Both the position numbers and the translations under genes were made by a program. The notes under the pieces were generated by a model that worked only from the letters and a program-made list of their open reading frames with translations, was not told the DNA's origin and made no database searches. DNA of 64,000 nucleotides, taken from the NCBI GenBank assembly GCA_946500265.1, contig CAMMVE010000003.1:21882-85881 (forward strand), in the 5' to 3' direction. Shown in pieces: positions 3,976-55,819 of this stretch. Source of the DNA: an uncultured Clostridium sp. (GTDB lineage: Bacteria; Bacillota; Clostridia; TANB77; CAG-508). How positions within the stretch are numbered: position 1 is the stretch's first letter; each line of letters starts with the position of its first letter.

Positions 3976-4334
3976 AGAAAAAGTTAATATAAAAGAAGGA
4001 TATATAGCAAAAAGAGTAAATTTTAAACAGCATATTGCGTATTAAATAACGATAAGCATAAGAGTAAAAAACGAAGGAGAATGAAAAAAATGAAAAACCA
4101 GCAAACCGTTGATATTGTAAGAGAGAGAGAGAGAGAGAGAGCATAATTTAGAGAAATTAAGCTTTATTTGTGATGCACAAAATAAAGTAGAAATAAAAAA
4201 TAAATATGAGTATATAAATAAAACAGATTATTTTGCAATATTTAAGTTGACAGATACAAAGCAACCATTATTGCAGGATAGTCTGTTTTATTGACCTCTT
4301 GAAAAGAACAATATAAATTTCAGGAGGTAAGAAA
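3976..4334 (+). promoter_or_regulatory. Conserved 5' leader copy 2 (uORF 4090-4146 with (AG)11, GGATAGTCTGTTTT at 4276-4289)
   Basis: Near-identical to 914-1286. Confidence 0.4.
4120..4141. repeat. (AG)11 microsatellite
   Basis: Perfect AG x11. Confidence 0.95.
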
Positions 4335-6308: not shown

Positions 6309-6800
6309 ATGAGCACAGTACTCATATAGCAGAAAAAGTATAAAAATGCAAGAACACGATAATATAATAAGGAATTGCTTACTCCAAAGTTATACAAAGG
6401 TCGAAATATATCATAAAATGTCGAAAAGTTATGATTGATTTCGACCTATATTTGTGATATAAATATAAACATAATGATTAGGTCTAATGTGCAATTCAAA
6501 TTATTACTTTATGAAATAGTTTAATAGTATCTATTTTTTACTCAATAATATAATTAGTTCAATATATTAAAATTGAAATCTTGATTAATTAAAATATTCT
6601 GCATACAAATACATATAAATTTTTATTATTATTTGTTAATATATCTTAATATTTCATTAGTTTTCAATCAAATAAAATCCAAATGATTAATTTAATATAT
6701 TTAATTTAAACAAAATCTCAACAAAAAACCAAGAGAAAAATAAAAAATATACAATGTACACAAGATTTAATTGTTAAATAAATTTTAGGAGGAATTGTGT

Positions 6801-7703
6801 ATGGAACAAAACAAATCAAAAGAAATAAAGAAGGAAGAAATATTATCACCGATGATAGATGTAGTATTTCAAATGTTATTTGGAGAGGTGGGGAGTGAGA
6901 AGATAACACAAGATTTTTTAAGTGCAATATTAAAAGAAAAAATAGAAACAATAAGTTTAGATCAAAATATAGTATTACGAAGAGAGTTACCCAAAGGGAA
7001 AATGGGTATAGTAGATGTGTTAGCAAAAATAAATGACAATGAATTTTGCAATGTAGAAATGCAAATGGCAGACAAAAAGAATATGATAAAGAGGATGTTA
7101 TATTACTGGGCAAGGCAGTATGCAAAAGAAATAGGCAAAAAAGAGGAGTATAAAGAACTAAAAAGGACAATAGTAGTACTAATAGCAAATTTTGAATTTG
7201 ATAAATTGAGAGAATTAGGAGTACATAGCAGATGGAAAATAATAGAGGAAGAAAGGCGAAAAATAGTATTGACAGAGGATTTAGAGTTTAATATAATTGA
7301 AGTACCAAAAATGTATAAGGAGAAACAAGCAAGAGACGAAAAGCTAATAGAATGCCTAAAATTCTTGGAGAATCCGGAAAGCAAAGAGGTGCAGGGGTAT
7401 ATGAAAAAGAATGAGAATATGAAAGAAGCAAGAGAGAAACTAGACAAAATGAGTAAGGATGAGAAAGTAAGAAGGATGGCAGAATTAAGACAAAAGGCAC
7501 TAATGGATGAAAGAGAAGCTGAATATACAGGTTATATTAATGGGTTAGAAGATGGAATAAAGCAAGGAATGAAACAGGGACTAGAGCAAGGAATAGGGCA
7601 AGGATATAGAGAAATTGCGAAGAAAATGAAAGGCAAAGGAAAAGATATAAATGAAATAATTGAATTAACCGGATTAAGTAAAGAAGAAATAGAAAAGTTG
7701 TAA
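6801..7703 (+). CDS. Rpn-family recombination-promoting nuclease / PD-(D/E)XK putative transposase (YhgA-like)
   Basis: TAGGAGG 8 nt before ATG 6801; conserved N-terminal ..MIDVVFQMLFG..FLSAILK..DVLAKIND..NVEMQ.. block and Gly/Gln-rich C-terminal tail typical of the family. Confidence 0.75.
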   Translation: MEQNKSKEIKKEEILSPMIDVVFQMLFGEVGSEKITQDFLSAILKEKIETISLDQNIVLRRELPKGKMGIVDVLAKINDNEFCNVEMQMADKKNMIKRMLYYWARQYAKEIGKKEEYKELKRTIVVLIANFEFDKLRELGVHSRWKIIEEERRKIVLTEDLEFNIIEVPKMYKEKQARDEKLIECLKFLENPESKEVQGYMKKNENMKEAREKLDKMSKDEKVRRMAELRQKALMDEREAEYTGYINGLEDGIKQGMKQGLEQGIGQGYREIAKKMKGKGKDINEIIELTGLSKEEIEKL

Positions 7704-8995: not shown

Positions 8996-9173
8996 AAATA
9001 AACTTCGCATTACGTCGTTAAAATTTAGATAAAAAATCGGTATATTTCTTAAAAAAAAGCTAATGATAAGGATAAAGAAGAAATAGGCAAAATGAAATTT
9101 TATAGTATTTATAAAATTCATGATATAACAAACAAAATATATTTGTTTATATTATTGCCTTACTGCTTTATGA

Positions 9174-9437
9174 ATGGAGATGATTAATTTGATTAAAAAG
9201 TTAGCCTGGAACACATTTAAAAACACAGGAGATATTAATACTTTTCTAGAATTAGTAGAGGTAGAAAATGTCGAAAAAAGTATGGGACTAGATGCAAATA
9301 AAGATATAGCAAAAGGTGAAAATATTATAGAAAATAATAATATAGCTTATAAAAATATGGTAGAGGCGGAAAAACAAAATGGGTTTAATAAAGGTGAAGG
9401 GAATAGTAATAGCGGAGAACAATATGAGCGACTTTGA
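9174..9437 (+). CDS. YqzL-family small protein
   Basis: N-terminal ..LAWNTFKNTGDINTFLELVE.. resembles YqzL (era-yqzL-recO context); overlaps recO start. Confidence 0.45.
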   Translation: MEMINLIKKLAWNTFKNTGDINTFLELVEVENVEKSMGLDANKDIAKGENIIENNNIAYKNMVEAEKQNGFNKGEGNSNSGEQYERL

Positions 9438-15235: not shown

Positions 15236-15333
15236 GACAAGGGGACAGTCCCCTCGTCTCAGTTTTGAACAGAAGGGACACTCCTTTTTGTTCAAGTTTT
15301 TGAACTTTTTGGAGTGTCCCTTCTGTTCAAGTT
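15236..15333. repeat. A-type palindromic element (two hairpins; perfect 21-bp inverted repeat CTTGAACAGAAGGGACACTCC) between convergent genes
   Basis: CTGAGACAAGGGGACAGTCCCCTCGTCTCAG then CTTGAACAGAAGGGACACTCC...GGAGTGTCCCTTCTGTTCAAG; likely bidirectional terminator. Confidence 0.65.
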
Positions 15334-17221: not shown

Positions 17222-17563
17222 AAAGGCATACTAAGATAAAAAAAGTAAAAGGATTAAAAAAATACAAAGGAGAAAAAATGAGAATGCATAGAACCATTGA
17301 TACTGTAGAGAGAGAGAGAGAGAGAGAGTAGAATTTAGAGAAACTAGCTTTTTTTGTGATGCAAAAAAAGTAGTAAATATATTAAAGATAGAAACAATAA
17401 ATATATGTGCAAATAAAGCAGATTATCAAGAAGTATTAGGAGTTTTTGAAATTCTAATGCTAACGGATAGTCTGTTTTTTTGGTGAGTTTATTAAAAACA
17501 AAATAAAGAGATAATAATAAAAGAAAGATTAAAATTTTAAGAAAACGGAGGTACAAAAAGAAA
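17222..17563 (+). promoter_or_regulatory. 5' leader copy 3 (uORF 17278-17331 MRMHRTIDTVERERERE, (AG)11, GGATAGTCTGTTTTTTT 17464-17480)
   Basis: Diverged but alignable to leaders at 914 and 3976; same order of elements. Confidence 0.4.
17307..17328. repeat. (AG)11 microsatellite
   Basis: Perfect AG x11. Confidence 0.95.
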
Positions 17564-28729: not shown

Positions 28730-28839
28730 AGTGCTAACTTTGTAAATACTTTGTGAAAATTCAAAAATTGTATTGAAAAAAATAATTTAATATGATAATA
28801 TATAGTTACATTAAGAAAATAAATATTAATTCCCTGCGT

Positions 28840-29012
28840 AGTGCGTGTAGACTGGAATTTTAGAACCAACAATAGATTAAAGGGAGTCCGCCTTTGAATG
28901 TGGCGTGTAAGCTTGCATTTATGTAAGAAACCCAGGAGCATTCAACAAGACACCCACCTGTGAAAGCAGGCTCTTAAAATTTCATTCATCTTGCGGCTAA
29001 TGTGGGGGATTT
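28840..29012 (+). promoter_or_regulatory. GC-elevated ~170-nt candidate structured RNA / cis-regulatory leader ending in terminator-like CACCCAC...GTGGGGGATTTTTG
   Basis: Local GC far above the 28% background with no ORF; GNRA-like hairpin CCTG-tgaaag-CAGG; T-run just before RBS of gene at 29031; family not identified. Confidence 0.3.
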
Positions 29013-32096: not shown

Positions 32097-32137
32097 CTTG
32101 AACAAAAGGGACACTCCTTTTTGTTCAAGCTCTTGAA
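32097..32137. repeat. A-type palindromic element CTTGAACAAAAGGGACACTCCTTTTTGTTCAAG
   Basis: Hairpin with GACACT loop; shares core with 15272-15330, 33051-33172, 63508-63600. Confidence 0.6.
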
Positions 32138-32217
32138 CATTTGAGATAGTTATATTCGTTCAATTCAAGAAAAACAAAAGACGAAAGGATCTACTGCCTT
32201 TCGCTTAAGTTTTCTAT

Positions 32218-32940: not shown

Positions 32941-33050
32941 ATCTAGTCACCTCTTATACTTTTTTATTTATAAATTCTATCTATCTCTACTAAAAAATAT
33001 TATAACATATAAATGTATATTTTTTTATTAATAATTTATTAAAATTAAAA

Positions 33051-33172
33051 GTGTCCCAAAAGTTCAAAGACTTGAACGAAAAGGAGTGTTCCTAAAGTTC
33101 AAAGACTTGAACGAAAAGGAGTGTCCCTAAAGTTTAAAAAATGGACAAAAAGGAGCGTCCTTTTTGCCCAAG
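33051..33172. repeat. Tandem array (about 3 units) of A-type elements (GGAGTGTyCCTAAAGTTCAAAGACTTGAACGAAAA) ending in hairpin CAAAAAGGAGCGTCCTTTTTG
   Basis: Direct repeats read in sequence; last hairpin plus T-run on minus strand serves as murC terminator. Confidence 0.6.
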
Positions 33173-33179
33173 ATAGAGC

Positions 33180-37380: not shown

Positions 37381-37602
37381 AAAACTATCATGGGACAAGG
37401 ATCATTTCTTCCAACTTATTTTTATTTGTAGCAGCTTCTTGCTCTTTGTATTGCTCAATTTGAAGCTCCATTAATTCTTGTGGTGAATATCCATATAAAC
37501 AATAATGTGGAAGTAGGAAGAAAATCTTTCAAAAAAGTTGTAATAAATGCTAAATTATTATATAATATATATGTACTTTATTTAATTGAATATGGAGGAA
37601 AT

Positions 37603-37896
37603 ATGCCAACAGAATTAAAAAAATATTTTTGGGATACTGATTTTGAAAGATTAGATTTACAAAAAAATAAAGAATATATAATATCAAGATTATATTGTTA
37701 TGGAGATTTGAAAGCAATAAGATGGGTAAACAATACATATTCAAGAGAAGACATAAAAAAAGTTGCTATAAAAAGGAGAGATTTAAAACCAATTGTTGCC
37801 AATTATTTAAGGCAGCAGTTCAATTTGAAAAAAGAAGAGATGGCGTATTATAGAACAGTATCAGCAATAAATTACGAATATTGGAAGGTGAATTAG
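37603..37896 (+). CDS. Small protein upstream partner of AbiEii-like toxin (possible antitoxin)
   Basis: TGGAGGAA SD before ATG 37603; 97 aa (..KKYFWDTDFERLDLQKNKEYIISRLYCYGDLKAIRW..); ends 4 nt before next gene. Confidence 0.5.
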   Translation: MPTELKKYFWDTDFERLDLQKNKEYIISRLYCYGDLKAIRWVNNTYSREDIKKVAIKRRDLKPIVANYLRQQFNLKKEEMAYYRTVSAINYEYWKVN

Positions 37897-37899
37897 CAT

Positions 37900-38550
37900 A
37901 TGCATTTTGAAATAATAGATAAAGCTAGGTTTGAATTATTAAAAAAAATAACAGAAAATGTAAGTATTCCTAATTATTATATGATAGGTGGCACAGGACT
38001 TTCGCTACAGTTAGGACTTCGAGAATCTTTTGATTTTGATTTTTGCGTAAAAGACCAATTTAATAATGAACTCCTATTAGAAGAACTAAAATGTTTAGGT
38101 CAAACTGAAGTAAAACAAAATCAAAAAGGTACTTGCGATGTAATAATTAATGGAGTACAAGTTAGCTTCTTTTATTATCCTAACAAAATTATAAACAATT
38201 ATGTAACAACAAAAGAAATCCCTAAATTAAAAATAGCTAGTATTCTAGATATTGCAATAATGAAAATTGTAGCAATAGGAGGAAGAGGTGCTAAAAAAGA
38301 TTTCTTTGATTTATATCAGATAATAAATAAATGTAATATTAGTCTTAATGATTTAGCAAATGGATTAATTCAAAAGTGTGGAACAAATGTGAACTTTGCC
38401 AATATTGTTATGGGATTAAGCTATTTTGAAGATGCAGAACAAGAAAATTTACCTAAAACTTTTGTAGAATACAACTGGAATGAAATAAAAAAATTTTTTG
38501 TGAAATTTCAAGCAGAATTTTGCAACATATTAGAAAAACTAGAAACATAA
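37900..38550 (+). CDS. AbiEii/AbiGii-family nucleotidyltransferase toxin (DUF1814-like)
   Basis: N-terminal ..YYMIGGTGLSLQLGLRESFDFDFCV.. matches the GGTAL...R.S.DIDF nucleotidyltransferase motif of AbiEii toxins. Confidence 0.65.
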   Translation: MHFEIIDKARFELLKKITENVSIPNYYMIGGTGLSLQLGLRESFDFDFCVKDQFNNELLLEELKCLGQTEVKQNQKGTCDVIINGVQVSFFYYPNKIINNYVTTKEIPKLKIASILDIAIMKIVAIGGRGAKKDFFDLYQIINKCNISLNDLANGLIQKCGTNVNFANIVMGLSYFEDAEQENLPKTFVEYNWNEIKKFFVKFQAEFCNILEKLET

Positions 38551-38855: not shown

Positions 38856-39188
38856 ATGGCAGCAAAAAAAGAAAATGCGGTAACAAGTGAGAAAATCAGA
38901 ATAAGATTAAAGGCTTATGATCATGTTGTTTTAGAACAGTCTGCTCAAAGAATAGTAGATACTGCTAAAAAAACAGGAGCAAAAGTTTCAGGTCCTATTC
39001 CGTTACCAACAGAGAAGGAAATTATAACAATTTTACGTTCTCCACACATGCACAAAGATTCAAGAGAGCAATTTGAAATGAGAACACATAAAAGAGTTAT
39101 AGACATTCTTTATCCAACACAAAAAACTGTAGATAATCTAATGAAAATAGATTTGCCAGCAGGTGTTGATATTGAAATCAAATTATAG
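38856..39188 (+). CDS. rpsJ: 30S ribosomal protein S10
   Basis: ..[40 protein letters not shown].. S10 signature. Confidence 0.95.
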
Positions 39189-40890: not shown

Positions 40891-41085
40891 ATGAATGAAG
40901 ATAGAAAAAAATTTTTGGAGAGACTACAAAAAGAAGCGGCACAAAGAGATGATGGAATAGCAGAAGACTGGGAAAAACTAGTTAAAAGTGGAACTATTCA
41001 AAAAATCATGGAAACAGAACAAAAGTATAAAGAATCTGGAGGATATCATGAACTAGATTCGACAGAAGAAGATATTGAGAAATAA
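40891..41085 (+). CDS. Unexpected 64-aa acidic hypothetical ORF inserted between rplW and rplB
   Basis: ATG 2 nt after rplW stop, weak GGGAG SD; hydrophilic MNEDRKKFLERLQKEAAQRDDGIAEDWEKLVKSG..; not part of canonical S10 operon. Confidence 0.4.
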   Translation: MNEDRKKFLERLQKEAAQRDDGIAEDWEKLVKSGTIQKIMETEQKYKESGGYHELDSTEEDIEK

Positions 41086-41159: not shown

Positions 41160-41987
41160 ATGGCAGTAAAAAGATTCAAAGCCTACACACCATCAAGAAG
41201 AAACATGACAGTTTTAGATTATAGTGAAATTACTAAAAAAACTCCTGAAAAATCTTTAATTACAACAAAGAAAGAAAAAGCAGGAAGAAATGCACAAGGT
41301 AAAATCACAGTTAGACATCAAGGTGGAGGTAACAGACAAAAATATAGAATAATTGATTTTAAGAGAAATAAAGAAAATATGCCAGCAACAGTTATTGGTA
41401 TAGAATATGATCCAAACAGAAGTGCAAATATAGCTTTAATTCAATATGAAGATGGAGAAAAAGCATATATATTAGCACCAGTTGGATTAACAGATGGAGC
41501 AGTTGTAGTATCAGGAGATAAAGCTGATATTAAACCAGGAAACTGTATGAAAATTGAAAACATACCAGTTGGTACTATGATTCACAATATCGAATTAAAT
41601 CCAGGTCAAGGTGGAAAATTAGTAAGAGCAGCAGGACAAGAAGCACAATTAATGGCTAAAGAAGGAAAATATGCTCATGTAAGATTACCATCAGGAGAAA
41701 TGAGATTAGTAATGGCTGTATGTAAAGCTACAATAGGAACAGTTGGAAATCAAGAACATGAAAATGTTAAACTTGGTAAAGCTGGTAGAAAAAGACATAT
41801 GGGATGGAGACCAACAGTTAGAGGTTCTGTTATGAACCCAGTAGATCACCCACATGGTGGTGGTGAAGGTAGAGCTCCAGTAGGACACAGCGGACCAATG
41901 ACTCCTTGGGGTAAACCAGCACTTGGATATAAGACAAGAAAGAAAAACAATAGAACAGATAAATTTATAGTAAAAAGAAGAAAATAA
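41160..41987 (+). CDS. rplB: 50S ribosomal protein L2
   Basis: ..GHVRLPSGE.., ..HPHGGGEGR.. L2 signature. Confidence 0.95.
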
Positions 41988-42012
41988 TAAATAAATAGTA
42001 AGGAACACAAAT

Positions 42013-42098
42013 AACTGACATCACTTATTCACAAGTAGGGGACATATCGTGTCCCGAGTGGAAGTGACAGAAGAGAAAAGATGTGTCCCTTACCGATG
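42013..42098. repeat. D-type ~90-bp repeat (..ACTGACATCA..CACAAGTAGGGGACATATCGTGTCCC..GTGACAGAAG..TGTGTCCCTTACCGA) inserted between rplB and rpsS
   Basis: Near-identical copy at 44420-44506 and related copy at 47798-47862; hairpin GGGACA-n5-TGTCCC. Confidence 0.65.
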
Positions 42099-42116
42099 AA
42101 AAGGAGGAAATAGGTA

Positions 42117-42395
42117 ATGTCAAGATCAAGTAAAAAAGCACCATTTGTTGCTCCAGAATTAATGAAGAGAATTGAGGCAATGAACGAGAGCGGTAATAAA
42201 GAAGTTATAAAGACATGGTCAAGAGCTTCTACAATTTACCCACAAATGGTTGGACATACAATAGCTGTGCATGATGGAAGAAAACATGTACCAGTATATA
42301 TATCAGAAGAAATGATTGGACATAAATTAGGAGAATTCGTTCCAACAAGAACATTCAAAGGACACGCAGGAGATAAGACAACAACAACTAAATAA
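42117..42395 (+). CDS. rpsS: 30S ribosomal protein S19
   Basis: Conserved S19; AAGGAGG SD. Confidence 0.95.
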
Positions 42396-42422
42396 GTAAA
42401 TTGATAGAAGGAGGTAATTAAG

Positions 42423-42782
42423 GTGGAAGCAGTTAAAGAAAATGTGCCACAAGCACACGCTACACTAAAATATGCTAGAATTTCTTCAAGAAAAGTTAAA
42501 ATTGTAGCAGATTTAATTAAAGGTAAAAACGTAGATGAAGCTACAGCTATACTTAAATATACACCAAAAGCTTCATCAGAAGTATTAGAAAAATTACTAA
42601 AATCAGCTATCGCTAATGCTGAAAATAACCATAACATGGCTCATGAAAAATTATATGTTGCTGATATATATGCAAACCAAGGTCCTACATTAAAGAGAAT
42701 AAGACCTGCTGCAAAAGGTTCAGCAGTAAGAATTAGAAAAAGAACAAGCCATATTACAATAGTTTTAAAAGAAAGAGATTAG
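42423..42782 (+). CDS. rplV: 50S ribosomal protein L22 (GTG start)
   Basis: ..[28 protein letters not shown].. L22 signature. Confidence 0.9.
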
Positions 42783-42808
42783 AAGAGAGGAAGGAGGACA
42801 TTTAAAAA

Positions 42809-43471
42809 ATGGGACAAAAAATGGATCCACATGGATTAAGAGTTGGTGTTATAAAAGACTGGGATTCTAAATGGTATGCAAATTCAAAAGATTTTGCAGA
42901 TTACTTAGTAGAAGATCACAAAATCCGTGTGTTTGTAAAGAAAAAATTATATGCAGCTGGAATTTCTAAAATAGAAATTGAAAGAACAGCTAAATTTGTA
43001 AAAGTTAATGTTTATGCTGCTAAACCTGGAATTATAATAGGTAAAGGCGGAAACTTAGCTGAAAGCTTAAAAAATGAATTAGAAAAAATGATTAAGAAAG
43101 AAGTTAATTTAAATATAGTTGAGGTTAAAAATATAGACTTAGATGCTCAATTAGTTGCAGAAAACATAGCAGGACAACTAGAAAGAAGAATATCTTTCAG
43201 AAGAGCTATGAAACAATGTATGCAAAAAACTATGAAAGCAGGTGCTTTAGGTATCAAAACTGCAGTATCTGGTAGATTAGGTGGAGCAGATATGGCTAGA
43301 ACTGAATTCTATAAAGAAGGAACAATTCCACTTCAAACTTTAAGAGCTGATATCGATTACGGATTTGCAGAAGCAAATACTACTTATGGAAAAATCGGTG
43401 TAAAAGTTTGGATTTATAAAGGAGAAGTTCTTCCTACTAAAAAGAAAGTAGTGGAAGGAGGAGACAAATAA
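42809..43471 (+). CDS. rpsC: 30S ribosomal protein S3
   Basis: [24 protein letters not shown].. S3 KH domain. Confidence 0.95.
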
Positions 43472-43914
43472 TGCCATTAATACCAAAAAGAACAAAATAT
43501 AGAAAACAACAAAAAGGTAGAAATAGAGGAAAAGCTACAAGAGGTAATAGAGTTACAGACGGTCAATTCGGACTACAAGCTTTAGAAGCTGGACAAATAA
43601 CATCTAACCAAATAGAAGCAGCCCGTGTTGCTATGACACGTTATATAAAAAGAGGTGGTAAAGTTTGGATTAAAATATTCCCAGACAAACCAATCACAAG
43701 AAAACCTATTGGAACTCGTATGGGTAAAGGTAAAGGTGCTGTTGAATTTTGGGTAGCAAATGTAAAACCAGGAAGAGTAATGTTTGAACTTGCTGATGTT
43801 AGCGAAGAAATTGCTAGAGAAGCGTTAAGACTTGCAGCAAACAAACTATCTGTTAAGTGCAAATTTGTACAAAAGGAAACTGAAATAGGTGGTGAGATAG
43901 ATGAAGATAAATAA
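43471..43914 (+). CDS. rplP: 50S ribosomal protein L16
   Basis: [20 protein letters not shown].. L16 signature. Confidence 0.95.
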
Positions 43915-44101
43915 AATAAAAGAAATGTCTTCACCTGACTTAGAAAAAGAATTAGTAGAATTAAAATCTGAACTATTCAAACTAAGATTTAGCTTAGCAA
44001 CACATGGTTTAGATAATCCTATGAAAATTAAAGAAGTTAAGAAAGACATTGCTAGAATAAAAACAGTTCTAACAGAAAGAAAATTAGCAGAAAATAAATA
44101 A
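43901..44101 (+). CDS. rpmC: 50S ribosomal protein L29
   Basis: ..[21 protein letters not shown].. L29; overlaps rplP end. Confidence 0.85.
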
Positions 44102-44120
44102 TTAAGAAAGGAGATTTAAC

Positions 44121-44384
44121 ATGGAAGAAAGAAATCTTCGTAAAGAAATGGTTGGCGTTGTTTCATCAGATAAAATGGATAAGACAGTAGTTGTATCTGT
44201 TCAAATGAACGAAAAACATAAAACTTATGGTAAAGTTCAAAAGAAAACATACAAACTAAAAGCTCATGATGAGAATAATGAATGCCAAATAGGAGATAAA
44301 GTAAGAGTAATGGAAACAAGACCTCTATCAAAAGATAAAAGATGGAGAGTTGTTGAAATTCTTGAAAAGGCAGTAATTAAATAA
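44121..44384 (+). CDS. rpsQ: 30S ribosomal protein S17
   Basis: ..[28 protein letters not shown].. S17. Confidence 0.9.
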
Positions 44385-44419
44385 AATAGATAACTAAAAA
44401 TATAGTAAGGTAGCACAAG

Positions 44420-44506
44420 AACTGACATCATTAATTCACAAGTAGGGGACATACATTGTCCCGTGTGAAAATGACAGAAGGAAAAGGTGTGTCCCCTTAC
44501 CGAGAA
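44420..44506. repeat. D-type repeat copy between rpsQ and rplN
   Basis: ..ACTGACATCATTAATTCACAAGTAGGGGACATACATTGTCCCGTGTGAAAATGACAGAAGGAAAAGGTGTGTCCCCTTACCGAG. Confidence 0.65.
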
Positions 44507-44524
44507 AAAGGAGGAAAATCAAAA

Positions 44525-44893
44525 ATGGTACAACAACAAACTATATTAAAAGTAGCAGATAATACAGGTGCAAAAGAAATTATGTGTATCAGATGTCTAG
44601 GTGGTTCATATAGAAAATATGCTAGAATTGGTGATATCATAGTTGCTTCTGTAAAAACAGCTATACCAGGTGGTGTTGTAAAAAAAGGTGACGTTGTAAA
44701 AGCTGTTGTAGTTAGAACAAAGAAACCTACAAGAAGAGCTGATGGTTCTTATGTTAGATTTGATGAAAATGCAGCTGTTATAATAAGAGACGACGGAACA
44801 CCAAGAGGAACTCGTATATTTGGACCTGTTGCAAGAGAGTTAAGAGAGAAGGATTATATGAAGATTCTTTCCCTAGCACCAGAGGTTTTATAG
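44525..44893 (+). CDS. rplN: 50S ribosomal protein L14
   Basis: [18 protein letters not shown].. canonical L14 start with AAGGAGG SD; ORF-track extension to 44456 is read-through of the repeat. Confidence 0.95.
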
Positions 44894-44956
44894 TCTTAAA
44901 AATAAGAGTTCAAAAAGAAATGAAATCTCGCTTAAAGGAAGAGGTGAAATAAAATA

Positions 44957-45265
44957 ATGAGAATAAAGAAAGGCGATACAGTTAAAGTTTTATCAGGAAA
45001 TGACAAAGGTAAAACTGGTGAAGTTTTAGAAGTAATACCAAAAACAGAGAAAATAATAGTTAAAGGTGTTAATGTAAGAAAAAAACACGTTAAAGCTAGA
45101 AAACAAGGAGAAGAAAGTGGTATTATACCTGTAGAATGTGCTATACATAGCAGTAAAGTAAATGTAGTTTGCCCAAAATGTGGAAAGGCTACAAGAGTTC
45201 AATATAAAATTGAAAAAGATGAAAAAGTTCGTGTTTGCCAAAAATGTGGAGCAAAATTAAAATAA
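44957..45265 (+). CDS. rplX: 50S ribosomal protein L24 (Cys4 zinc-ribbon type)
   Basis: MRIKKGDTVKVLSGNDKGKTGEV.. KOW motif; CPKCGK...CQKCG. Confidence 0.9.
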   Translation: MRIKKGDTVKVLSGNDKGKTGEVLEVIPKTEKIIVKGVNVRKKHVKARKQGEESGIIPVECAIHSSKVNVVCPKCGKATRVQYKIEKDEKVRVCQKCGAKLK

Positions 45266-45292
45266 TTATAGGAAGGAGGACTATTTAGACTT

Positions 45293-45832
45293 ATGGAAAT
45301 ATTAAGAGAGCAATATGAAAAAGAAGTTATACCAGCAATGATGAAGAAATTTAACTATAAATCAGTTATGGAAGTTCCAAAGTTAGACAAAATAGTTATT
45401 AATATAGGTTTAGGTGATACAAAAGATAATCCTAAATCATTAGAAAATGCTATAAATGACCTTACAATTATAACTGGACAAAAACCAATTATAACTAAGG
45501 CAAAAAAAGCTATAGCAGCTTTCAAAATAAGAGAAGGAATCAACATGGGATGCAAAGTTACATTAAGAAAAGGTAAAATGTATGATTTTGCATATAAACT
45601 ATTCAATGTAGCACTTCCAAGAGTTAGAGATTTTAGAGGAGTGTCAACTGATTCATTTGATGGTAGAGGAAATTATTCAATGGGAATTAAAGAACAACTT
45701 ATTTTCCCAGAAATCGAATATGACAAAATTGATAAAATTAGAGGAATGGATATAATTTTCGTTACAACAGCTAACACTGATGAAGAAGCTAAAGAACTTC
45801 TTACTTTGTTAGGAATGCCTTTTAAAAATTAA
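45293..45832 (+). CDS. rplE: 50S ribosomal protein L5
   Basis: Conserved L5. Confidence 0.95.
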
Positions 45833-45852
45833 TTTGATGAAAGGAGAAAAAA

Positions 45853-46038
45853 ATGGCTAAAAAATCTTTAAAAGTAAAACAACAAAGAGCCCAAAAGTAT
45901 AAGACAAGAGAATATAATAGATGCAAAATTTGTGGAAGACCACACGCATATATTAGAAAATATGGAATTTGCCGTGTATGTTTTAGAGAATTAGCTCATA
46001 GGGGAGAAATTCCAGGAGTTAAGAAAGCTAGCTGGTAA
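45853..46038 (+). CDS. rpsN: 30S ribosomal protein S14 type Z (zinc-binding, 61 aa)
   Basis: [38 protein letters not shown]. Confidence 0.95.
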
Positions 46039-46054
46039 TAATTTGTTTGAAAAT

Positions 46055-46152
46055 CAGCAGTCTGCGTCGTTAAACTGCGTAAAAATTTTTTCAATGTACA
46101 GCTTGTACTATTTCAAAAATTTTTACTTGTTTGCCTAGCATCCTACTAATTT
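46055..46152. repeat. C-type large imperfect palindrome between rpsN and rpsH
   Basis: Arms GCGTAAAAATTTTTTCAATGTACAG / CTTGTACTATTTCAAAAATTTTTAC; ..TGCCTAGCA.. tail shared with other copies. Confidence 0.6.
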
Positions 46153-46211
46153 TGAAATAAATTAAAATAATAACATTTGTGAATTCCAAAGAAAGAAGGA
46201 GGGAAAATAAA

Positions 46212-46610
46212 TTGAATACTACAGATCCAATAGCAGATATGTTAACAAGAATAAGAAATGCAAACAGCTCTAAGCATAAAACAGTTGATGTTCCAGCATC
46301 AAACATGAAAAGAGCAATTGCTAACATCCTATTCAAAGAAGGATATATAGCAGCATTTGAGGAAATAGATGACTCTCGTCAAGGAGTTATAAGAATAACT
46401 TTAAAATATGACGAGAAGGGTAAAAGAGTTATTGATGGAATAAAGAGAATAAGCAAACCAGGTCTAAGAGTATATGCATCTAAAGATGAATTACCTAGAG
46501 TATTAAATGGTTTAGGAATAGCTCTTATATCTACTTCAAAAGGAATAAAAACAGATAAAGAAGCAAGACAAGAAGGCCTAGGAGGAGAAGTCTTAGCTTA
46601 CGTATGGTAA
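46212..46610 (+). CDS. rpsH: 30S ribosomal protein S8 (TTG start)
   Basis: (M)[16 protein letters not shown].. canonical S8; GGAGGG SD; ORF-track 46179 start reads through repeat. Confidence 0.9.
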
Positions 46611-46637
46611 TATCTAAAAAAGGAGGGAAATAAAACA

Positions 46638-47177
46638 ATGTCAAGAATAGGAAATAAACCTATTAATGTACCAGATGGTGTAGAAGTTAAAGTTGATGGA
46701 CATCACATTACTGTAAAAGGACCAAAAGGAACATTAGAGAAAGACTTACATAAAAATATGGAAGTTGTTTTGGCAGATAAAGTAATTACAGTAAAAAGAC
46801 CAAACGACGATCCAGCAAATAAAAGTTTACATGGTTTAACAAGAACATTAATTAATAACATGATAGAAGGTGTTCTTAACGAATATAAAAGAGACCTAGA
46901 AATTAATGGTGTTGGTTACAGAGCTCAAAAGAAAGGAAATAAACTAGTAATGAACCTAGGATATTCTCATCCAGTTGAGATGGACCCACCAGCAGGAATT
47001 ACTTTTGATGTTCCAGATGCTAACCATATTACAGTTAGAGGAATTGATAAAGAATTAGTAGGTCAAACAGCAGCAGTTGTAAGAACAAAAAGACCACCTG
47101 AAGTATATAGAGGTAAAGGTATTAAATATGCTGAAGAGCATATTAGACGTAAGGAAGGTAAAGCCGGCAAGAAATAA
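46638..47177 (+). CDS. rplF: 50S ribosomal protein L6
   Basis: MSRIGNKPINVPDGVEVKVDG.. L6. Confidence 0.95.
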   Translation: MSRIGNKPINVPDGVEVKVDGHHITVKGPKGTLEKDLHKNMEVVLADKVITVKRPNDDPANKSLHGLTRTLINNMIEGVLNEYKRDLEINGVGYRAQKKGNKLVMNLGYSHPVEMDPPAGITFDVPDANHITVRGIDKELVGQTAAVVRTKRPPEVYRGKGIKYAEEHIRRKEGKAGKK

Positions 47178-47355
47178 AAGCTTAAATGAAAAGCTTCGTC
47201 TTACGTTGTTAGCCTTCACAAATAATTTTTCAATCTACAAATCGTACTATTTCAAAATTATTTGCTTGGCTGCCTAGTAATACTTGCTTTTGATTTAAGC
47301 AGAGACATGCTGAAAGCAATACTCGTTTTTGATTAAAATTTGCCGAGTATATAAT
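47178..47355. repeat. C-type repeat (two sub-units) between rplF and rplR
   Basis: AAGCTTCGTCTTACGTTGTTAGCC..TTTTTCAATCTACAAATCGTACTATTTCAAAA..GGCTGCCTAGTAATACTTGCTTTTGATT.. ; aligns to 52765-52965. Confidence 0.6.
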
Positions 47356-47429
47356 TAAGAAGATTAAATTAAAAATAAATCTAAAAATAAACTAAGAGCA
47401 AAATCTTTTAGTTAGAAAGGAGATTTAAA

Positions 47430-47789
47430 ATGGTAAAGAAAACAGATAGAAAAGCAGAAAGAGTAAGAAGACATGCAAGAGTACGTAGAAAAATTTCTGG
47501 AACAGCTGAATGCCCAAGATTAAGTGTATTTAGAAGTAACAGCAATTTATATGTACAAGTAATTGATGATACAAAAGGAATTACTTTAGTTCAAGCTTCA
47601 ACATTAGATAAAGAAGTAAAAACAAAACATTCAAACAAAGAAGCTGCTAAAGAAGTTGGAACATTAATTGCAAAAAGAGCAATCGAAAAAAATATCAAAA
47701 CAGTAGTTTTTGATAGAGGTGGATATATTTATCATGGAGTTGTAAAAGAACTTGCTGATGCTGCTAGAGAAGGCGGATTAAACTTTTAA
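47430..47789 (+). CDS. rplR: 50S ribosomal protein L18
   Basis: ..[24 protein letters not shown].. L18. Confidence 0.95.
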
Positions 47790-47797
47790 AAAATGCT

Positions 47798-47862
47798 AAA
47801 ACCCGGCGGGGACATACCGCGACCCAAGTGGCAATGACCTAGGGGACAGGTGTGTCATCGTT
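47798..47862. repeat. D-type related repeat between rplR and rpsE
   Basis: ..CGGGGACATACCGCGACCCAAGTGGCAATGACCTAGGGGACAGGTGTGTCATCG.. Confidence 0.55.
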
Positions 47863-47899
47863 AGAAAATTAAATTCAAATAGAGTTAGGAGGAAAGAGA

Positions 47900-48391
47900 A
47901 TGCAATCAGAAAACATATCTGAATTAAAAGAAAAAGTTGTAGCTATTAACAGAGTTGCAAAAGTTGTTAAAGGTGGTAGAACATTCAGATTTAGTGCAGT
48001 TGTAGTTGTTGGTGACGAAAACGGACATGTAGGCGTTGGAAATGGTAAAGCAGCTGAAGTTCCAGATGCTATAAAGAAAGCTATTGAAGATGCTAAAAAG
48101 AACTTAGTTGAAGTTCCAATAGTAGATACAACTATTCCACATGAATATGTTGGAAAATTTGGTAGTGCTAATGTTTTACTAAAGCCAGCAGCAGAAGGTA
48201 CTGGAATTATTGCAGGTGGTAGCGTTAGACCTGTTCTAGAACTTGCTGGATACAGAAATATAAGAACAAAAATTATAGGTACAAATAATCCTAGAAATGT
48301 TGTTTATGCAACTATAGAAGGACTAAAATCTATGCAAACTGTAGAACAAGTAGCTAAAAAAAGAGGTAAAAAAGTAGAAGAAATCTTATAG
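47900..48391 (+). CDS. rpsE: 30S ribosomal protein S5
   Basis: ..[28 protein letters not shown].. S5. Confidence 0.95.
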
Positions 48392-48413
48392 AAAGAGGAG
48401 GTGTACATACAAA

Positions 48414-52764: not shown

Positions 52765-52965
52765 ATGAAAAGCTTCGTATTGCGTTGTCAAGCGTCGCAT
52801 AAAATTTTTTCGATATACACAAGTATTATCTCAAAAATTTTAGCTAGCTTTCCTAGCACTACTCGCTTTTGATTTGTTTTAAATAAAAAAGAATTAAAAG
52901 TACGTCTAACAAAATATGCTGAAAATTAGCTCGGCTGCCTTGTTATACTCGCTTCTAATTCGAAT
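52765..52965. repeat. C-type repeat (two sub-units) between rpsM and rpsK
   Basis: GAAAAGCTTCGTATTGCGTTGTCAAGCG..TTTTTTCGATATACACAAGTATTATCTCAAAAATTTTAGCTAGCTTTCCTAGCACTACTCGCTTTTGATT.. and ..CTCGGCTGCCTTGTTATACTCGCTTCTAATT. Confidence 0.6.
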
Positions 52966-55294: not shown

Positions 55295-55819
55295 GTGGCA
55301 ACTAATAGAAAGTTAGGTAAAACAACTGATATAAGATTAGCAATGCTTAAAACTCAAGTTACTGATTTAATATTACATGGAAAAATAGAAACAACAGAAG
55401 CTAGAGCAAAAGAAGTAAAAGCAATAGCTGATAGCTTAATCTCATTAGCTGTAAAAGAAAAAGATAACTTTGAAACAGTTGAGGTTAAAGTTTCTAGAAC
55501 TAAATTAGATGCAAAAGGAAATAAAGAAACAGAACTTGTAAAAAGCAAAAATGGTAAAGAATATCTAAAAGTAGTTAGAGAAGAAGTTACAGAAAAAAGA
55601 CAAAAAGATATGCCATCAAGATTAAATGCAAGAAGAAAAATGATGAAAACATTAAACAAAGTAAAAGACGAAAACGGAAAAAATATAGACTTAACTGCAA
55701 AACTATTCAATGAAATAGCTCCAAATTATGAAGGAAGAGTAGGAGGATATACACGTATCCTAAAACTTGGACAAAGAAGAGGAGACGCAGCAGAAATGGT
55801 TATATTACAATTAGTATAA
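55295..55819 (+). CDS. rplQ: 50S ribosomal protein L17 with ~55-aa internal insertion (GTG start; ORF-track ATG 55274 overlaps the SD)
   Basis: ..[16 protein letters not shown].. and C-terminal ..[38 protein letters not shown]; central Lys/Glu-rich segment absent from typical L17. Confidence 0.85.

Follow-up and report, generated by a model that had tools for sequence, protein, structure and literature searches.

In a 64-kb stretch of DNA from an uncultured Clostridium sp. (hereafter the window), three intergenic spacers of the S10-spc-alpha operon hold copies of one family of small structured elements, two in a long form of ~96 nucleotides (nt) and one in a short form, and this element is a previously undescribed structured repeat that is restricted to operons and locked in its orientation. 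Operons of ribosomal proteins (r-proteins) are among the most conserved and most tightly packed gene arrays of bacteria, with short spacers to which an essential part in translational coupling and balanced output is ascribed. The window has a GC content of 30% and bears on its + strand an S10-spc-alpha operon of the Firmicute type, which runs from rpsJ at 38856 to rplQ at 55819. Most spacers of this operon measure 18-30 nt and three are long, those of rplB-rpsS, rpsQ-rplN and rplR-rpsE, where the gene map agrees with the original prediction of long gaps (measured lengths are given in Table 1).

That prediction had also held that the three gaps contain related elements, and our alignments confirm it. 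Against dinucleotide shuffles, the first and second gaps align locally with z=49 over ~125 nt, and each of them aligns with the third with z ~6.7 over a 50-nt core, the control spacers of the same operon giving scores at the shuffle level. The core GGGGACATANNNNGWCCC occurs 3 times in the 64 kb, against 0.10 occurrences expected, and is confined to the three long spacers. With the covariance model of the family (described below), copy 1 (rplB-rpsS) matches at 72.9 bits, copy 2 (rpsQ-rplN) at 76.6 bits and copy 3 (rplR-rpsE) at 68.8 bits over 47801-47864. The limits first proposed for the elements needed revision in part: related copies do lie at all three sites, but copies 1 and 2 begin ~15 nt earlier (at GTAAGG, positions 41998 and 44405) because their 5' arm pairs with the 3' end. 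In the same way, copies 1 and 2 end just upstream of the Shine-Dalgarno sequence (SD) of the next gene (7 nt), as had been said of all three, whereas the stem of copy 3 stops ~30 nt before it. Such a resemblance might reflect the chance likeness of low-complexity spacers or an ancestral sequence conserved in place, and A/T-rich spacers that end in similar SDs do give some similarity alone. The alignment scores, the empty sites of sister strains, the compact operons of related species and the presence of the same element in different gaps of different species refute this explanation, to which we attach next to no probability.

Insertion into compact spacers and distribution of the family

Strains of the same species were taken to be contigs that encode an identical S17 protein, and came from human-gut and other metagenomes (loci are cited by our L numbers). 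In L004 the rplB-rpsS spacer consists only of AGAAGGAGGAAATAGGTA (18 nt), with the SD and spacer of rpsS present just as in the window, and in L005 the rplR-rpsE spacer consists only of AGAAAAAGGAGGAAAGAGA (19 nt); the other spacers of the two strains are unaltered. The operons of further relatives, obtained through S17 homologues at 83-91% identity, are almost fully compact in L037/L038, and in L029/L030 they are compact at the three gaps and mostly compact overall, while other related species have spacers of 130-260 nt at positions that vary (gap matrix, 18 loci). The claim that these spacers are normally compact is thus borne out by empty sites and by compact relatives alike, and the comparison of orthologous spacer lengths that had been proposed as a check gives short spacers in sister strains and in related species. 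Together, these comparisons uphold the structural half of the original interpretation and show the three sequences to be small non-coding structured insertion elements in spacers of the S10-spc-alpha operon.

Insertion takes place in the A/T-rich sequence that follows the stop codon and precedes the native SD, and the long forms leave 6-12 nt between their end and the SD. The SD and spacer 3' of every insertion are specific to the gap and the lineage and are kept across species, so that the element does not supply the SD, and the idea that it carries its own was ruled out. We found no target-site duplication at rplB-rpsS (L004 against the window) or at rplR-rpsE (L005 against the window); at these empty/filled junctions a few spacer bases are replaced instead of a direct repeat being present. 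A target-site duplication of the SD itself was ruled out by comparing the recent rplB-rpsS insertion with the empty allele.

The short form is made up of the core with CCCSRCR on its 5' side, CGTYAG on its 3' side and an A/T-rich tail. This tail accompanies short forms in several other gaps, and therefore belongs to the element. Short and long forms are also found combined or repeated: L013 has, in its rpsE-rplO gap, a long form with a short form nested in its apex, and tandem copies occur in L011 and L031, those of the rpsQ-rplN gap of L011 being short copies near-identical to copy 3. For this gap of L011 we considered a co-transfer of flanking spacer from the rplR-rpsE gap and rejected it, since the tail is part of the element and the SD context matches that of the native rplN of L031.

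The distribution of the family was explored by two context-free scans. A 20-base degenerate core pattern, searched against 185,579 species (one genome each), gave 6 matches, all in metagenome-assembled genomes labelled uncultured Clostridia, Clostridiaceae or Clostridium sp., and all within the r-protein operon, on the coding strand, in four different gaps. The scan of the metagenome collection, for which a looser core pattern was used, recovered the species of the window, a single more distant relative, which has the match in its rpsE-rplO gap, and a copy directly 5' of the SD of dnaK. It further matched a related subfamily on two contigs (45-49% GC) and gave two hits that are evidently due to chance. 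The hosts of the family are a clade of uncultured gut Clostridia of ~30% GC. Covariance-model searches of the window and of fetched loci of about 20 kb yielded ~45 copies, in 11 operon gaps, in the rpsJ leader and at dnaK, with up to 7 per operon. In different genomes the element precedes rpsJ, rpsS, rplV, rpsQ, rplN, rpsH, rplR, rpsE, rplO, rpsD, rplQ and dnaK. All of the copies in the fetched loci (~45/45) are in the sense orientation; they lie on the coding strand and are therefore transcribed within the polycistronic mRNA. The other 47 kb of the window (best E=0.7) and the non-operon flanks of the loci hold no copy of the family. The copy at dnaK is itself variable, being present in L021 and L043 and absent from L039-L042, the DnaK proteins of which are 93-94% identical to the query. 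Searches of viral contigs, plasmids and phages returned no match to the family, and an origin from a phage, a plasmid or the end of an insertion sequence was rejected on these searches.

The window holds, in addition, a separate palindromic family in which GGGACAC/GTGTCCC is flanked by TTGAAC..GTTCAA, partly as tandem units of 35 nt. These palindromes share GGGACA with the element and are unmatched by its covariance model (E>=2).

The long-range stem and its crossing helices

The fold was derived from an alignment of 15 and then of 32 distinct copies, made with MAFFT and then with a covariance model built on the first alignment. A local hairpin, GGGACA-n5-TGTCCC, had been noted for each of the three elements. 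It is present in copies 1 and 2; copy 3 is a distinct short form with GGGACATACCGCGACCC, and across the family the local hairpin does not covary and is disrupted in 5-6 of 15 copies, for which reason we discarded it as the conserved feature. The conserved pairing is instead a long-range stem between GGGGACAUA.. and ..UGUGUCCCC. This stem, which is common to all forms, has 13 base pairs (bp; GGGGACAUAYNNN / NNNRUGUGUCCCC) and is 93% paired among the 32 distinct copies, against 36-68% for slid controls. Pair 17-65 alternates between CG (22 copies) and UA (10) and is never broken, pair 20-62 is UA in 18 and CG in 7, and the covariation score observed for the stem was reached by 0 of 500 shuffles. 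RNAalifold, run on 22 long forms, recovered the same core stem. At one pair of the stem, 32 of 32 copies have a U·G wobble, which on the complementary strand would be an A·C mismatch, so that the structure is strand-specific. The stem encloses a loop of ~27 nt with a conserved GNCCC..GUGR..UGAC, and the core contains invariant strands of 9 nt and 8 nt.

The long forms have an extra 5' arm, two segments of which pair with the core loop as helices P2 and P3. In our own realignment of the 22 long forms, pairing reaches 92% in P3 and 84% in P2, where slid controls reach 31-44%, and covarying pairs are among them (for instance 46-75, CG13/UG6/UA3; 38-82, CG11/UA4; 30-87, GC10/UA7). The far 5' end of the long form makes helix P1 with the 3' strand of the core stem; its sequence is GTAAGGnACAC or, in other subfamilies, AGGAGAACAC. 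Because P2 and P3 cross the core stem, the long form would adopt either an H-type pseudoknot or an alternation of extended and core hairpins, and with connecting loops of 5-7, 7 and 12 nt the pseudoknot is sterically conceivable. A consistent bistability was ruled out, the predicted equilibrium of the alternative folds varying by copy.

Folded alone, copy 1 forms an extended hairpin (-29.5 kcal/mol, z=-3.3) and copy 2 reaches -30.3 kcal/mol (z=-3.5), and the minimum-free-energy fold of the whole rplB-rpsS spacer contains the core stem of copy 1. Compared with shuffles, the spacer folds of copies 1 and 2 give z=-3.7 and z=-3.2, and that of copy 3 is no better than shuffles (z=-1.3). In every predicted fold the downstream SD is mostly unpaired, with a probability of being unpaired of 0.42-0.86, and in the long forms the stem lies 24-34 nt from the start codon. 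Sequestration of the SD by the C-rich 3' strand, which we considered, is not predicted: this strand always pairs with a 5' partner and the SD stays mostly open. The layout of the spacer is that of a stable structure directly 3' of an A-rich single-stranded stretch, followed by an SD that is predicted to be accessible.

Pseudoknots at ribosome-binding sites are classical r-protein operators (S4, S15), and the element resembles these and the r-protein leader families in being a structured RNA, possibly a pseudoknot, beside ribosome-binding sites of r-protein operons. One reading accordingly makes the element an RNA switch or an operator of translation, in which a trans factor (r-protein, RNA-binding protein or ligand) would read the core or the pseudoknot and shift the folds, giving the cistrons of the translation apparatus and dnaK a shared control input through translation of the downstream cistron. 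Two crossing sets of helices that both show compensatory changes are the signature of a pseudoknot or of two states, the invariant strands and loop residues exceed what pairing needs, and the distance to SD and start codon is fixed. We nevertheless consider such an operator unlikely. The SD is sequestered in no predicted fold, the short forms are without the 5' arm that the second set of helices requires, and the copies stand before a dozen different genes and not in one regulator's operon; sister strains, and related species in their entirety, lack the element. Known families gave no support either. The only Rfam 15 match of the window at gathering thresholds is 6S RNA, and even at E<=10 nothing over 41900-48000 overlaps the elements, which rejects identity with a known RNA family. 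Against the 16S, 23S and 5S rRNA of E. coli rrnH, which are not those of the clade itself, the best match of the covariance model had 5.6 bits (E=1.3) and local alignments of the elements stayed at the shuffle level, so that neither comparison gave a sign of mimicry of these rRNAs.

Table 1. Positions in the window of the long spacers, of the element copies with their parts, of the native SDs and of two other repeat families
Feature	Position	Strand	Details
rplB-rpsS spacer	rplB end 41987, rpsS start 42117	+	129 nt
rpsQ-rplN spacer	rpsQ end 44384, rplN start 44525	+	140 nt
rplR-rpsE spacer	rplR end 47789, rpsE start 47900	+	110 nt
Copy 1, long form	41998..42093	+	96 nt, rplB-rpsS; 5' arm GTAAGGAACAC to 3' arm GTGTCCCTTAC
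Copy 1 core hairpin	42038..42090	+	5' strand GGGGACATATC 42038-42048, 3' strand GATGTGTCCCT 42080-42090; loop GTGTCCCGAGTGGAAGTGACAGAAGAGAAAA
Copy 1 5' flank segments TCACTT..TTCAC	42021..42032	+	Pair with loop 42058-42067 (GTGGAAGTGA), helices P2/P3
Copy 2, long form	44405..44500	+	96 nt, rpsQ-rplN; ~80% identical to copy 1
Copy 2 core hairpin	44445..44496	+	GGGGACATAC.. / ..GGTGTGTCCCC
Copy 3, short form	47801..47884	+	rplR-rpsE; 5' ACCCGGCG, 3' CATCGTTAG, A/T-rich tail up to ..AAATAGAG
Copy 3 core stem	47811-47818 / 47849-47856	+	GACATACC / GGTGTGTC
Native SD of rpsS, AAGGAGG	42101..42107	+	7 nt 3' of copy 1, outside the element
Native SD of rplN	44508..44514	+	7 nt 3' of copy 2
Native SD of rpsE, AGGAGG	47887..47892	+	
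D8 repeat	46048-46160		rpsZ-rpsH spacer
D8 repeat	47186-47298		rplF-rplR spacer
D8 repeat	52765-52876		rpsM-rpsK spacer
D8 repeat, weak copy	26096-26175		infB-rbfA spacer
GGGACAC/GTGTCCC palindromes	15265-15330, 32098-32163, 33035-33177, 63509-63581		

Relation to known repeats and possible roles

Full-text literature searches for repeats of r-protein operons, or for miniature inverted-repeat transposable elements (MITEs) in them, found nothing relevant described. The known small repeats of bacteria, that is REP/BIME, ERIC (IRU), Correia/CREE, BOX, RUP and bcr1, occur all over their genomes in either orientation, with tens to hundreds of copies; REP protects upstream mRNA from 3' exonucleases and Correia elements are cut by RNase III. 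Like REP/BIME, ERIC, Correia and BOX/RUP/bcr1, the element is small, non-coding and hairpin-forming, occupies transcribed intergenic sites of operons, varies between strains and forms tandem and nested arrays. The effect on mRNA stability and processing that is known or proposed for these repeats is, for the element, a proposal of ours (see below). Unlike them, it is seen only in r-protein spacers and 5' of dnaK, always sense; it has neither a target-site duplication nor a conserved GTAG-type tetranucleotide; and unlike simple palindromes, it has a core that combines the 13-bp stem, a large conserved loop and the invariant U·G.

When the traits of each class are taken in turn, the long form does have the terminal inverted repeats of a MITE, in the closing helix GTAAGGnACAC / GTGTnCCTTAC; the terminal repeats of other subfamilies are (C)AGGAGAACAC and GTGTYCCCTG, and the short form consists of the core stem only. 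Presence/absence polymorphism among close relatives is likewise found (the two sites above, the 18-locus matrix and dnaK). Target-site duplications are not, and neither are dispersed copies in both orientations (pattern scans of the collections, window and fetched loci). As to REP, copies 1 and 2 and the rplR-rpsE copy of L013 have GTAG before the stem, where the other copies have GCAG, CGTG, GTGT, CGTT, GGCG or GGGA, so that a GTAG/CTAC tetranucleotide is not a trait of the family, and the copy number is not high genome-wide (pattern scans, window). Where an r-protein leader has a fixed site before the gene of its own regulator, the element has a dozen different downstream genes, and where a riboswitch is stably and vertically present, the element is polymorphic between strains and absent from whole related species; its crossing helices both covary, the SD is unsequestered in either fold and no terminator was found. 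It also departs from r-protein leaders in its polymorphism and its unsequestered SD, and in having no Rfam match and no detectable rRNA mimicry. In the material covered, the family lacks defining traits of MITEs (target-site duplication, dispersal), of REPs (tetranucleotide, copy number) and of r-protein leaders (Rfam match, fixed site).

With regard to function, we favour, tentatively, the possibility that the element acts at the RNA level as an intercistronic barrier or processing module that sets mRNA stability. In this model, an endonuclease such as RNase Y would cut the A-rich single-stranded spacer, and the stable structure would then cap the two products, the downstream one at its 5' end and the upstream one at its 3' end, blocking both 5'-3' (RNase J-type) and 3'-5' exonucleases, while the native SD, 6-12 nt beyond the structure, would remain open; the outcome would be a segment-specific mRNA stability, and hence protein ratios, along the operon. 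RNase Y is described to prefer single-stranded A-rich RNA with a downstream structure, and the processed products of cggR-gapA and glnRA gain stability from a downstream hairpin (PMC11780869); RNase J1 is blocked by SD-like stabiliser sequences (PMC4113751). The element is like the cggR-gapA and glnRA hairpins and the cry3A STAB-SD in placing a stable structure after an A-rich single-stranded stretch and before an SD predicted to be open, and the action proposed is the same, a block to RNase J-type 5' decay of the downstream fragment. As in the STAB-SD of cry3A (PMC4113751), about half of the long forms start with an SD-like AGGAG that no start codon follows; as a universal motif of STAB-SD type, the 5' AGGAG was rejected, since the other half lacks it (L035 has GGGTAAACAC and similar). 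A difference is that the cggR-gapA, glnRA and cry3A stabilisers are single, locus-specific and fixed in their species, and the element is a repeated module conserved across loci and species. The coding strand of the elements holds no consensus of a sigma-70 promoter or of an intrinsic terminator, by which an internal promoter or terminator was rejected. A role in polarity, processing or stability, as suggested originally, would fit this finding, the sense orientation and the A-rich placement near an open SD.

Several points weigh against such a host function, which we infer in its entirety. Each copy is dispensable, as follows from its presence or absence in strains with identical S17 at two sites. 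Partition-function prediction favours a fold that differs from copy to copy. The related subfamily of higher GC (L017 and L026, 4 copies) lies antisense in gaps of unrelated, non-ribosomal operons, so that the wider family is not intrinsically bound to ribosomal operons, and the sense orientation within the operon is confounded with the direction of replication, the GC skew of the operon strand being +0.23. Orthologous copies have diverged to about the same extent as fourfold-degenerate sites in the genes beside them: in the comparison of L031 with L035, positional orthologues in four gaps have 79-83% identity (80% overall), where those sites have 77%, the copy in L012 that is orthologous to copy 2 of the window is 89% identical, against 84%, and a third comparison gives 94% against 98%. 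An overall excess conservation of orthologous copies was thereby ruled out, and the core alone is invariant; the same figures imply that many copies are old.

A further point of this kind comes from D8, a second and unrelated family of ~113-nt repeats, each a near-perfect long hairpin (z=-3.7 to -6.3), which occupies other spacers of the window (Table 1). In relatives, D8 occupies further r-protein gaps, in either orientation: L004 has it at 6763-6876 on the + strand and at 7132-7026 on the - strand, and it is also present in L007, L012 and L023. An unrelated hairpin thus builds up in the same operon, and these spacers may simply be permissive or hot for hairpin insertions. In the more distant relative L023, tandem repeats of ~90 nt precede the copy of the element in the rpsE-rplO gap (about 9170-9356, minus strand), and the rpsK-rpsD spacer has a (GGAAATT)n microsatellite, which is further evidence that spacers of the r-protein operon are unusually plastic in this clade.

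A neutral or selfish origin accounts for much of the same evidence. The element might be a hairpin repeat of MITE- or REP-like nature, without host function, that is copied between spacers at the DNA level, and we judge such a selfish and merely tolerated repeat to be nearly as likely as the stability module. Copying would proceed by hairpin-stimulated template switching or gene conversion, or by a transposase that acts on single-stranded DNA hairpins and is encoded elsewhere; the insertions would persist because the closed hairpin keeps stop codon and SD effectively near; the uniform orientation would reflect the copying mechanism (strand or replication polarity) or the loss of harmful antisense insertions; and the invariant core would be a requirement of the copying machinery. 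Copies group by genome and not by gap (90-91% identity within L031 and 80-88% within L035, against 77-80% to positional orthologues), which points to spread or homogenisation inside the operon and indicates intra-operon copying or gene conversion as the probable process. Besides this grouping, a selfish repeat would account for the polymorphism among near-identical strains, the nesting of short in long form (L013), the tandem copies (L011, L031), a divergence of orthologues equal to that of synonymous sites, the unrelated D8 hairpins in other gaps of the operon, the antisense L017/L026 subfamily in unrelated operons and the co-orientation of the operon with the purine-rich, presumably leading, strand. 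It is harder to reconcile with the lack of a target-site duplication at either empty/filled pair, with the lack of copies in the low-GC clade beyond r-protein and dnaK spacers in the context-free scans, or with the lack of any phage, plasmid or viral match and of any transposase linked to the family in the loci of about 20 kb. Nor does it readily explain why ~45/45 copies are sense while D8 has both orientations in the same gaps, or why neither the U·G wobble nor the loop sequence varies, not even among copies whose inheritance appears to be vertical.

A further reading, which we regard as improbable, is a self-propagating cis-regulatory RNA cassette, a pseudoknot or two-state module whose invariant core would be read by a dedicated trans factor and which would copy itself specifically into spacers of translation-machinery and chaperone operons. 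If it were true, the trans factor could be an RNase, an r-protein or another RNA-binding protein, and the cassette would allow a modular and evolvable post-transcriptional retuning of r-protein stoichiometry.

Neighbouring genes and significance

The operon and its surroundings show other particularities. The rpmD (L30) gene is not present between rpsE and rplO, where the window has a 22-nt spacer (48392-48413), and it is likewise missing from every relative examined. Between rplW and rplB lies a small acidic open reading frame (ORF) of 64 amino acids (aa; 40891-41085) with no Pfam hit on record, which several relatives keep at 54-81 aa and in place of which strain L004 has two inverted D8 copies. 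In L029 and L030 (9641-9958), rpmC (L29) encodes a Lys/Glu-rich C-terminal extension of ~40 aa (105 aa against 66 aa). Directly upstream of the leader of the S10 operon, at 37480-38550, a DUF6922 gene and an AbiEii-like gene (the latter by a faint Pfam hit) look like a toxin-antitoxin or abortive-infection module. Elsewhere in the window, 6S (SsrS) RNA is encoded at 28828-29012 on the + strand (Rfam RF00013, 108.7 bits), and (GA)9-11 tracts stand right after an ATG at 1035-1095, 4081-4141 and 17268-17328, where each either precedes one of three paralogous large ORFs or is in frame with it; these ORFs are candidates for phase-variable genes acting by slipped-strand mispairing.

In conclusion, the r-protein operons of a whole clade of gut Clostridia have up to seven copies of this element each, tolerated or exploited, together with a second family of hairpins, and both the restriction to r-protein and dnaK spacers and the number of insertions borne should surprise specialists. 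Since alleles with and without a copy exist within the same species, function is directly testable in existing gut metatranscriptomes. If the elements are selfish, they have a niche specificity that is unusual for a bacterial repeat, and they provide a natural experiment on the degree of spacer expansion that is tolerable in r-protein operons. If, on the other hand, they set processing sites or the stability of segments, they would represent a mobile form of post-transcriptional operon tuning.

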